From a virus (taxonomy: Duplodnaviria > Heunggongvirae > Uroviricota > Caudoviricetes): a stretch of DNA of 7,768 bases. Where the stretch lies: IMG/VR virus record IMGVR_UViG_2681813154_000006. One strand, 5' to 3'. Made by a program: the position numbers and the translations under genes. The notes under the pieces were generated by a model. It had not been told where the DNA came from and ran no database searches. It worked only from the letters and a program-made list of their open reading frames with translations. This document shows, one piece after another, positions 5,153 to 5,229 of the stretch. Numbering within the stretch: the stretch's first letter is position 1; each line of letters begins with the position of its first letter.

Positions 5153-5229
5153 CCGCCACTAGCTCATCAGGAAAGAGCGTCAACCCTTTAAGTTGAGTGT
5201 GCGAGGTTCGAGTCCCCGGTGGCGGTCCA
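5153..5229 (+). tRNA. tRNA-like gene of uncertain identity (anticodon loop CCTTTAA)
   Basis: Perfect 7-bp acceptor (CCGCCAC / GTGGCGG), D-stem GCTC/GAGC, anticodon stem TCAAC/GTTGA, T-loop TTCGAGT, 3' CCA encoded. The loop has C at position 33; canonical numbering gives anticodon UUU (Lys-like). The 5' end abuts the N run. Confidence 0.5.

Follow-up and report, generated by a model that had tools for sequence, protein, structure and literature searches.

Nearly all tRNAs carry U at position 33 of the anticodon loop, where it forms the U-turn on which ribosome binding depends (PMC13276492). What, then, is a tRNA gene that has C in this place, and could it serve in translation? The question is posed by a 7,768-nucleotide stretch of DNA (the window) from the IMG/VR virus record IMGVR_UViG_2681813154_000006, in which a tRNA gene on the plus strand at 5153–5229 combines C33 with the anticodon UUU. 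This C33 tRNA gene is the second of four genes in a tRNA operon that consists of tRNA-Ile2(CAU), the C33 tRNA and copies of the host genes thrU and glyT; the host element is a lambdoid (phiP27-like) Escherichia coli prophage, and the operon lies in its late-regulatory region. We found that 5153–5229 is a genuine phage tRNA gene. Judged by its sequence, it is an allele of the argN family of phage tRNA-Arg genes in which the anticodon UCU has become UUU and U33 has become C. As to function, we propose, at a little short of an even chance and by analogy with other phage tRNAs, that it may be an expressed phage surrogate for tRNA-Lys(UUU), unlike host tRNA-Lys at the sites of the nucleases PrrC (33|34) and AriB (39–41).

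The C33 tRNA gene and its recurrence

Written by segments, the gene reads CCGCCAC-TA-GCTC-ATCAGGAAA-GAGC-G-TCAAC-CCTTTAA-GTTGA-GTGTG-CGAGG-TTCGAGT-CCCCG-GTGGCGG-T-CCA. ARAGORN called a tRNA-Lys(ttt) at exactly 5153–5229, and the Rfam tRNA model (RF00005) matched the same interval at 44.4 bits (E = 4e-7; gathering score 29) over model positions 1–71 of 71. The anticodon arm, TCAAC-CCTTTAA-GTTGA, has a 5-bp stem (5180–5184/5192–5196) and a 7-nt loop (5185–5191) composed of C32 C33 U34 U35 U36 A37 A38, with C33 at 5186 and the anticodon at 5187–5189; it occurs once in the window, where the chance expectation is 0 matches. Position 37 holds the expected purine, A, and position 33 holds C in place of the expected U. 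The other canonical elements include a 7-bp acceptor stem with C1-G72, a 4-bp D stem with G18G19, T54-T55-C56-R57-A58 within the T loop TTCGAGT, and an encoded CCA (5227–5229), and the determinant of N6-threonylcarbamoyladenosine (t6A), U36-A37-A38, is kept in the loop CCUUUAA.

These results bear out the original prediction that the site holds a tRNA gene whose formal anticodon is UUU and whose position 33 is C. The covariance model placed it above the gathering score, and instead of no tRNA or a pseudogene, the outcome that the prediction had named as adverse, ARAGORN, Rfam and, for identical copies, PGAP returned a tRNA or tRNA-Lys. With 44.4 bits and calls by ARAGORN and PGAP, the window copy shows neither mark of a pseudogene, that is, a score below the thresholds or drift at the rate of the flanks. 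The cloverleaf, which had been described as well formed, is so in the encoded CCA, the D arm and the acceptor stem but not in the T stem, where A51 faces C63 (a "v" in the cmscan alignment); in relatives, the 51:63 pair is G-C, G·U or A-U. The minimum free energy fold of the single sequence differed from the cloverleaf (z = −1.46), as did that of host lysT, and the cloverleaf lay above the minimum by 2.7 kcal/mol in the C33 tRNA versus 2.2 in lysT; single-sequence folding is therefore uninformative about this cloverleaf.

A run of 10 N at 5142–5151 stands just upstream, and it had been thought to add uncertainty. Comparison of the window with locus L001 and about 100 intact arrays indicated that it is an assembly gap or a mask whose length is arbitrary: the 10 Ns stand in for 19 nt (AATCCAGCAAGGGCCACCA), which form the 3′ end of the tRNA-Ile gene, and intact relatives read ...GGGCCACCA-A/G-CCGCCAC... 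at the junction. Since the run ends at 5151 and A5152, the sole base between it and C1, precedes the gene, the C33 tRNA is complete and untouched by the gap, which truncates its upstream neighbor instead. The gap lies 2 nt 5′ of the gene, as an artefact of sequencing or assembly at that place would have it, but finished genomes by the hundred, as well as phage records, contain the identical gene; this explanation is refuted, and its probability is practically nil.

The C33 arm is common. A 43-nt probe in which every 28-mer spans the anticodon loop found the exact arm in 779 of 5,426 complete E. coli genomes (∼14%, or about one in seven) at 829 places. The U33 version of the same probe had no match among the 5,426 genomes, which is weak evidence against revertants, considering the low overall diversity. 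About 90 further copies came from viral, metagenomic and species-representative collections, and all had C33, their loops being CCTTTAA except for two with TCTTTAA and one with ACTTTAA. Among 151 unique tRNA sequences called by ARAGORN in ∼1.5 Mb of fetched loci, 14 lacked U33, all of them in the C33 clade, and the other 137 had it. The gene is also carried by the isolated phages vB_EcoS-689R5 and vB_EcoM-606R7.

Nucleotide diversity was computed over 57 unique loci with the order Ile-Lys*-Thr-Gly, where Lys* denotes the C33 allele. It amounted to 0.35 in the upstream DNA, 0.16 from the promoter to the Ile gene, 0.004 in the Ile gene, 0.019 in the C33 tRNA gene, 0.008 in the Thr gene, 0.033 in the Gly gene and 0.28 in the downstream DNA. 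The C33 tRNA gene is thus more than 10-fold less diverse than its flanks, yet less conserved than the Ile gene. Among the 752 E. coli records of the C33 clade, 326 have an intact 5′ half, and these are labelled tRNA-Lys by PGAP.

Descent from the argN family

Of the 5,426 complete E. coli genomes, 2,145 hold relatives of the C33 tRNA by a 79-nt blastn search, which also matched 273 phage records. Relatives at 80–90% identity are annotated as tRNA-Arg and named argN in 933W, VT2-Sakai and many Stx2 phages, where argN takes the second place in an Ile-Arg-Arg array 5′ of stx; to the annotated argN of 933W, Stx2a_F349 and other phages, the C33 tRNA is 80.5–84.4% identical. The likeness extends to position, for the C33 tRNA gene and argN (accompanied by ileZ and argO in 933W, VT2-Sakai and phiP27) both stand second after tRNA-Ile(CAU) and 3′ of the antiterminator gene Q, and to the body of the molecule, a 77-nt cloverleaf with the same C1-G72, U73, D loop (A20) and T loop. 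The A51×C63 mismatch, too, occurs in an O157 argN allele. The two differ in that argN has U33 and a UCG or UCU anticodon, including C35, whereas the C33 tRNA has C33 and UUU, and in their downstream partners, which are argO in argN arrays and the thrU and glyT copies in the window.

Alignment of the family showed one tRNA body with several anticodon arms. The arm CCAGC-CTTCGAA-GCTGG (UCG, Arg) belongs to argN of Stx phages. Arms with UCU (Arg), TCAAC-CTTCTAA-GTTGA and TCAAC-TTTCTAA-GTTGA, occur among others in the same Ile-X-Thr-Gly architecture as in the window (L138, L154), so that Ile-Arg(UCU)-Thr-Gly arrays exist beside Ile-Lys*-Thr-Gly arrays. An arm with CCU (Arg), TCAAC-CTCCTAA-GTTGA, is found in Salmonella arizonae and diarizonae. 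The anticodon UUU occurs in two arms, TCAAC-CTTTTAT-GTTGA with a normal U33 (Lys; L005 type) and TCAAC-CCTTTAA-GTTGA with C33, the window type.

The body that bears these arms is under structural constraint. Over 46 distinct family sequences, 97.5% of cells were paired in the cloverleaf, and compensatory double changes were seen in 48 cells at 5 pairs, a covariation reached by 0 of 500 shuffles; all four helices are backed by it. These data indicate that the argN family is a real, structurally constrained tRNA. In Rfam tRNA bits, three argN alleles scored 56, 43 and 42, the UUU allele with U33 (L005) 53, the UCU allele 52 and the window type 44–46, compared with 79 for host lysT; the moderate score of the window gene is largely a family trait. 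C1-G72 together with U73 is common to nearly all members, and the acceptor beginning with C1-G72, first taken for a peculiarity of this gene, was accordingly dismissed as an oddity.

A copy of host lysT was likewise ruled out as the source. The C33 tRNA and lysT share UUU and 36-UAA-38, their loops (CCUUUAA and CUUUUAA) differ at 33 alone, and otherwise only generic tRNA positions are alike; common descent is undetectable, the 79-nt blastn having returned only phage Arg and Lys* genes as homologues. Host lysT has G1-C72, A73 and 79 bits, against C1-G72, U73 and 44 bits in the C33 tRNA. The alignment with tRNA arrays of related prophages, which the original prediction had suggested, thus showed that C33 recurs and pointed to an argN-family tRNA-Arg switched to a Lys anticodon. 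On this comparison, the gene is of the argN family by descent and position and would count as tRNA-Lys by its anticodon, not by descent or discriminator base.

Several variants were seen in the family and its arrays. Across Enterobacteriaceae prophages, the family anticodons are UCG, UCU, CCU and UUU; the CCU body is that of L137, L144 and related metagenome contigs (Salmonella enterica subsp. diarizonae and arizonae). In two IMG/VR contigs (L086, L121), the third array gene has a thrU body in which G35T gives UUU in a canonical CTTTTAA loop, which looks like a further switch to a Lys anticodon within these arrays; the C33 copy beside it carries U8C and C11U, a regained A51-U63 pair and G73. 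A G3·U70 wobble is present in the acceptor stem of L007 (O157:H7 argN), L003 and L012 (phage Evi). G3·U70 is the main identity element for alanyl-tRNA synthetase, and argN alleles that have it might be mischarged with alanine. At L010 301–382 (E. coli 2011C-4315), the anticodon arm of the gene in the argN position is rearranged and longer by 5 nt; this gene is labelled "tRNA-OTHER" by PGAP and receives no ARAGORN call, and in L011 the gene in this position is fused to a glyT-like 3′ end. By these sequences, the second array position appears to be a rearrangement hotspot.

A possible substitute for host tRNA-Lys

Under the proposed function, the C33 tRNA would be transcribed and processed with its array neighbors. 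By the identity rules of E. coli, arginyl-tRNA synthetase (ArgRS) requires C35, and UUU is the main determinant for lysyl-tRNA synthetase (LysRS). The C33 tRNA would therefore escape recognition by ArgRS, because C35 is gone, and LysRS, reading the UUU anticodon, would charge it with lysine, although with U73 in place of A73 it should be the poorer substrate. With the determinant U36-A37-A38 kept, t6A37 could still be formed, and the tRNA would decode AAA and AAG, probably less efficiently than a U33 tRNA. It could then stand in for host tRNA-Lys(UUU), which several defence nucleases of E. coli attack, and lysine decoding by the phage would go on once the host tRNA is cut. We infer this nuclease escape by analogy with the tRNA-Lys of phages T5 and SP15.

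The comparison with host lysT is consistent with such a role. All five anticodon-stem pairs differ, positions 39–41 are GUU versus UCA, and position 33 is C versus U; with these differences the C33 tRNA could survive host tRNA destruction. The anticodon is that of a tRNA under attack, tRNA-Lys(UUU) being the target of PrrC and AriB and a secondary target of P2 Old, and the changes fall at 39–41, within the AriB site UAAUC|A, and at 33, beside the PrrC cut at 33|34. AriB cuts E. coli tRNA-Lys at U36AAUC|A41, and a single change of U39 abolishes cleavage (PMC12409363). PrrC cuts between positions 33 and 34 (PMC2275089), and P2 Old targets tRNA-ThrU first, with tRNA-Lys among others (PMC12445682). 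As for t6A, the modification depends on 36-UAA-38, and U33 receives no base-specific contact from bacterial TsaBD (PMC13276492).

Phage tRNAs of this kind are known. T5 tRNA-Lys restores infection under AriB (PMC12409363), tRNA-Lys(UUU) alone was enriched when 245 coliphage tRNAs were screened as AriB suppressors (PMC12445682), and T1 and T7 were rescued from PrrC170 by phage tRNA-Lys and not by E. coli tRNA-Lys (PMC11555353). The tRNA-Lys(UUU) of T5, as well as those of SP15 and other virulent phages, has thus been shown to resist the AriB nuclease of PARIS or to rescue from PrrC170. Like the C33 tRNA, the T5 molecule is a phage tRNA with the nuclease-targeted host anticodon and with changed positions 39–41 (T5 ACC, C33 tRNA GUU, host UCA). 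It is lysT-like (G1-C72, A73) with the loop CUUUUAA, whereas the C33 tRNA has an Arg-type body, U73 and C33 and is carried by a temperate phage, and the likeness is one of logic. A lambdoid precedent is the tRNA-Thr(UGU) of phage 21, which guards against P2 Old, a tRNA-cutting nuclease of a competing element (PMC12445682); it is of another isotype, and its stem changes are absent from the window Thr gene, which is essentially host thrU. The anticodon UUU, moreover, occurs in these arrays in three settings, none of them derived from lysT: the C33 allele, the U33 allele of L005 and the thrU-body gene with G35T (L086, L121). Its appearance in three different settings hints at a demand for a Lys decoder that is not host-like.

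Several observations weigh against this proposal. U33 forms the U-turn, so C33 should weaken decoding; the discriminator is U73, where host and T5 tRNA-Lys have A73; and the T stem is not fully paired. The nuclease-resistant T5 tRNA-Lys keeps U33, so escape does not need C33, and the Thr copy in the array retains the host UAAUCA site of AriB. Many copies of the C33 clade are lesioned: about 246 of the 752 records lack 1 nt of the D stem, most of them in enterohaemorrhagic E. coli lineages, and about 180 carry U4, C8 and U11. Both groups are unannotated by PGAP and fall under the Rfam cut-off, sister alleles of the L003 and L004 types likewise score below it, and such lesions in more than half of the copies look like relaxed constraint. 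Stem changes within the clade that keep or restore pairing outnumber disruptive ones by about 7 to 3, which is not significant. The low diversity of the gene could come from linkage to, or gene conversion with, neighboring tRNA genes under selection, and within a 300-nt array the two processes could mimic selection. Finally, we found no paper on the C33 tRNA in the literature on ileZ/argN, on U33C in bacterial translation and on PrrC and U33.

A stronger version of the proposal holds that U33 to C is itself adaptive, blocking nucleases of the PrrC class that cut beside residue 33, in a working elongator tRNA-Lys with weaker decoding. We consider this unlikely, since T5 tRNA-Lys keeps U33 and since no data on a PrrC requirement at position 33 were found in the literature. 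Natural function without U33 has a precedent in the eukaryotic cytoplasmic initiator tRNA-Met, which has C33; this tRNA binds the P site directly and tells little about an E. coli elongator.

The chief alternative to a nuclease-insensitive surrogate is that the gene is an impaired allele, a former tRNA-Arg(UCU) with C35U, U33C and the 51:63 mismatch that is of little use in translation and decays slowly between useful Ile, Thr and Gly genes. We regard this as quite possible, though somewhat less likely than the surrogate. C33, A51×C63 and U73 are each unfavorable for a Lys elongator, the Rfam score is 44–46 bits versus 52–56 in U33 relatives, the gene is about 5 times as diverse as the Ile gene, and more than half of the clade copies in complete E. 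coli genomes have gone further, by the D-stem deletion or by U8C plus C11U, to a point where neither PGAP nor the Rfam cut-off recognizes them. A canonical UUU tRNA arose from the Thr gene beside a lesioned C33 copy (L086, L121), and a decoder of AGA was given up although phage use of AGA is about 4 times the host average. On the other hand, the intact form is the most frequent one at this place in the array (55 of the 189 family copies that were sampled; 326 E. coli records), and phages recovered in virion form carry it. The non-coding DNA 10–50 nt 5′ of the array is at least 8 times more diverse than the gene, whose stems, G18G19, T loop and 36-UAA-38 are intact, and positions 33–38 are invariant in ∼900 copies. 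In E. coli suppressor tRNA and yeast tRNA-Phe, substitutions of U33 reportedly lower function without abolishing it. On the choice between a degenerate copy and a tRNA with altered properties, which the original prediction had left open, the evidence points both ways: the allele is frequent and well kept, yet over half of the clade copies have sunk below detection thresholds.

The remaining explanations are weaker. Ordinary codon supply, in which a functional tRNA-Lys serves late genes rich in AAA/AAG and has nothing to do with defence nucleases, agrees with the usage of AAA and AAG (40 and 20 per 1000 codons in the window open reading frames (ORFs), 46 and 27 in late genes) and with the fact that the other array tRNAs read ATA, ACA and GGA, which the phage over-uses. 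E. coli K-12, however, has at least 5 lysT-type genes in one cluster, AAA is common in the host, and a captured lysT, like the thrU and glyT copies, would serve better than an Arg-bodied tRNA with C33 and U73; codon supply fits Ile, Thr and Gly, seems to fit Lys poorly, and is an improbable account of the C33 tRNA. Still less probable is an RNA that does not decode at all and acts as a nuclease decoy or competitive inhibitor, or as a spacer guiding RNase P or RNase E processing of the precursor. Its cloverleaf is kept though a decoding-critical base has changed, and possible inhibition of AriB by over-expressed viral tRNAs was raised by the authors of the AriB study (PMC12409363), but nothing speaks specifically for this idea: the anticodon stem differs from that of the host at bases that AriB reads, which makes for poor mimicry, and arrays with a normal Arg tRNA in this position presumably process normally. 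Altered decoding, in which C33 would shift or loosen the frame (for example by a U-turn one base later that presents UUA) and cause frameshifting or stop read-through, strikes us as hardly credible. What speaks for it is the unusual loop; tRNA-Lys(UUU) and tRNA-Gly(UCC) do decode the slip site of GGGAAAG type in lambdoid tail-chaperone genes, but a 5-bp stem carries a loop of the usual 7 nt, the analysis identified no target for recoding, and related phages have ordinary Arg tRNAs at the same array position.

U33 is among the most conserved nucleotides in biology, and an elongator-type gene with C33 is nevertheless present in ∼14% of complete E. coli genomes, where it has so far gone unremarked, being labelled plain "tRNA-Lys" or left unannotated. 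A widespread natural elongator-type tRNA without U33, reached through an Arg-to-Lys anticodon switch, is unusual. If the tRNA works, it shows how far the anticodon loop can change in vivo and offers a natural instance in which one anticodon change, made on a foreign body, switched the isotype from Arg to Lys. Counter-defence by tRNAs, an idea tied to T5 and other large virulent phages, would also reach the small arrays that temperate prophages of lambdoid and Stx type carry, prophages of medical relevance. Should C33 itself serve escape, this would be the first natural elongator tRNA of a bacterial virus to give up U33 in order to evade immunity, and its origin would be an Arg body switched to a Lys anticodon instead of a modified Lys tRNA. 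If the tRNA is dead, it is one preserved by its neighbors and a warning for automated annotation.

The array and its surroundings in the prophage

The C33 tRNA gene lies in a prophage tRNA array, as the original prediction had implied, with the order Ile-C33-Thr-Gly. An ileZ-like tRNA-Ile2(CAU) comes first; its 5′ 57 nt, at 5085–5141 on the plus strand, are identical to L001 6136–6192. ARAGORN and Rfam missed this gene in the window because the N run hides its last 19 nt; PGAP annotates the intact counterpart, L001 6136–6211, as tRNA-Ile, ARAGORN as tRNA-Met(cat). Locus L001, from E. coli strain 165 (NZ_CP020509), is a gap-free version of the region and reads Ile(CAU), one spacer base, C33 tRNA, Thr(UGU), Gly(UCC). 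Spacers of 1–2 nt surround the C33 tRNA gene. It is followed on the same strand by tRNA-Thr(UGU) at 5232–5307 (ARAGORN; Rfam 72.5 bits), a copy of host thrU that departs from the MG1655 gene at one base (A9G), and by tRNA-Gly(UCC) at 5311–5385 (ARAGORN; Rfam 64.9 bits), which is identical to host glyT. A few related arrays (L171, L165) still have tyrU between the Thr and Gly genes, with the host spacer. The thrU and glyT copies and the leftover tyrU indicate that the Thr-Gly half was captured from the host thrU-tyrU-glyT-thrT operon.

A consensus scan located a sigma-70-type promoter on the plus strand at 5047–5075 (TTGCAA, 17 nt, TATTAT), followed by a G+C-rich stretch and placed 9 nt 5′ of the tRNA-Ile gene. 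The −10 hexamer does not vary across 37 unique related loci and the TTGC of the −35 element hardly does, while the spacer and the upstream DNA have diverged; since the hexamers are kept amid diverged DNA, the array looks like a transcription unit of its own. Read-through of the array from the late promoter would also be expected from the arrangement. A late-promoter-like site at 4875–4903 and a strong intrinsic terminator hairpin with a T run at 4954–4985 were found on the plus strand by promoter and terminator scans, and weak matches to isrK and isrJ, small RNAs of Salmonella prophages, lie at 4906–4979 under the Rfam gathering score. The segment 4875–4985, directly after Q, is probably a short pR′-tR′ (6S-like) transcript unit on which Q acts.

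The Q gene itself (4197–4886, plus strand; PF06323, Pfam E = 3.7e-91) is the 5′ neighbor of the array; also on that side are a DnaC-like loader, DnaB helicase and RusA. The lysis cassette follows on the 3′ side at 5896–7313 on the plus strand (Pfam and annotation of related loci) and comprises a P21-type holin S (5896–6081; Pfam), a 209-amino-acid ORF without a Pfam match (6085–6714) and a lysozyme (6780–7313; Pfam). L001 has the same order of genes around Q and the array as the window. An attachment-site role, which had been considered for the tRNA-like structure, does not suit this place, as the gene lies in mid-prophage between Q and the lysis genes, within a promoter-driven tRNA operon.

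Two perfect inverted repeats were seen just 3′ of the Gly gene, at 5392–5437 (11-nt arms, 24 nt apart) and 5445–5517 (14-nt arms, 45 nt apart). A T run lies within the second, and the region is highly variable among related loci; the repeats may be terminator or processing structures of the array. Farther upstream, the window holds two distinct antiterminator-Q-type ORFs 1 kb apart, one at 2851–3267 (PF06530, 138 amino acids) and the Q gene at 4197–4886 (PF06323, 229 amino acids), with a truncated DUF968 ORF (3499–3840) between them. This pairing, together with the truncated ORF, suggests that the late-regulatory region is mosaic or partly degraded.

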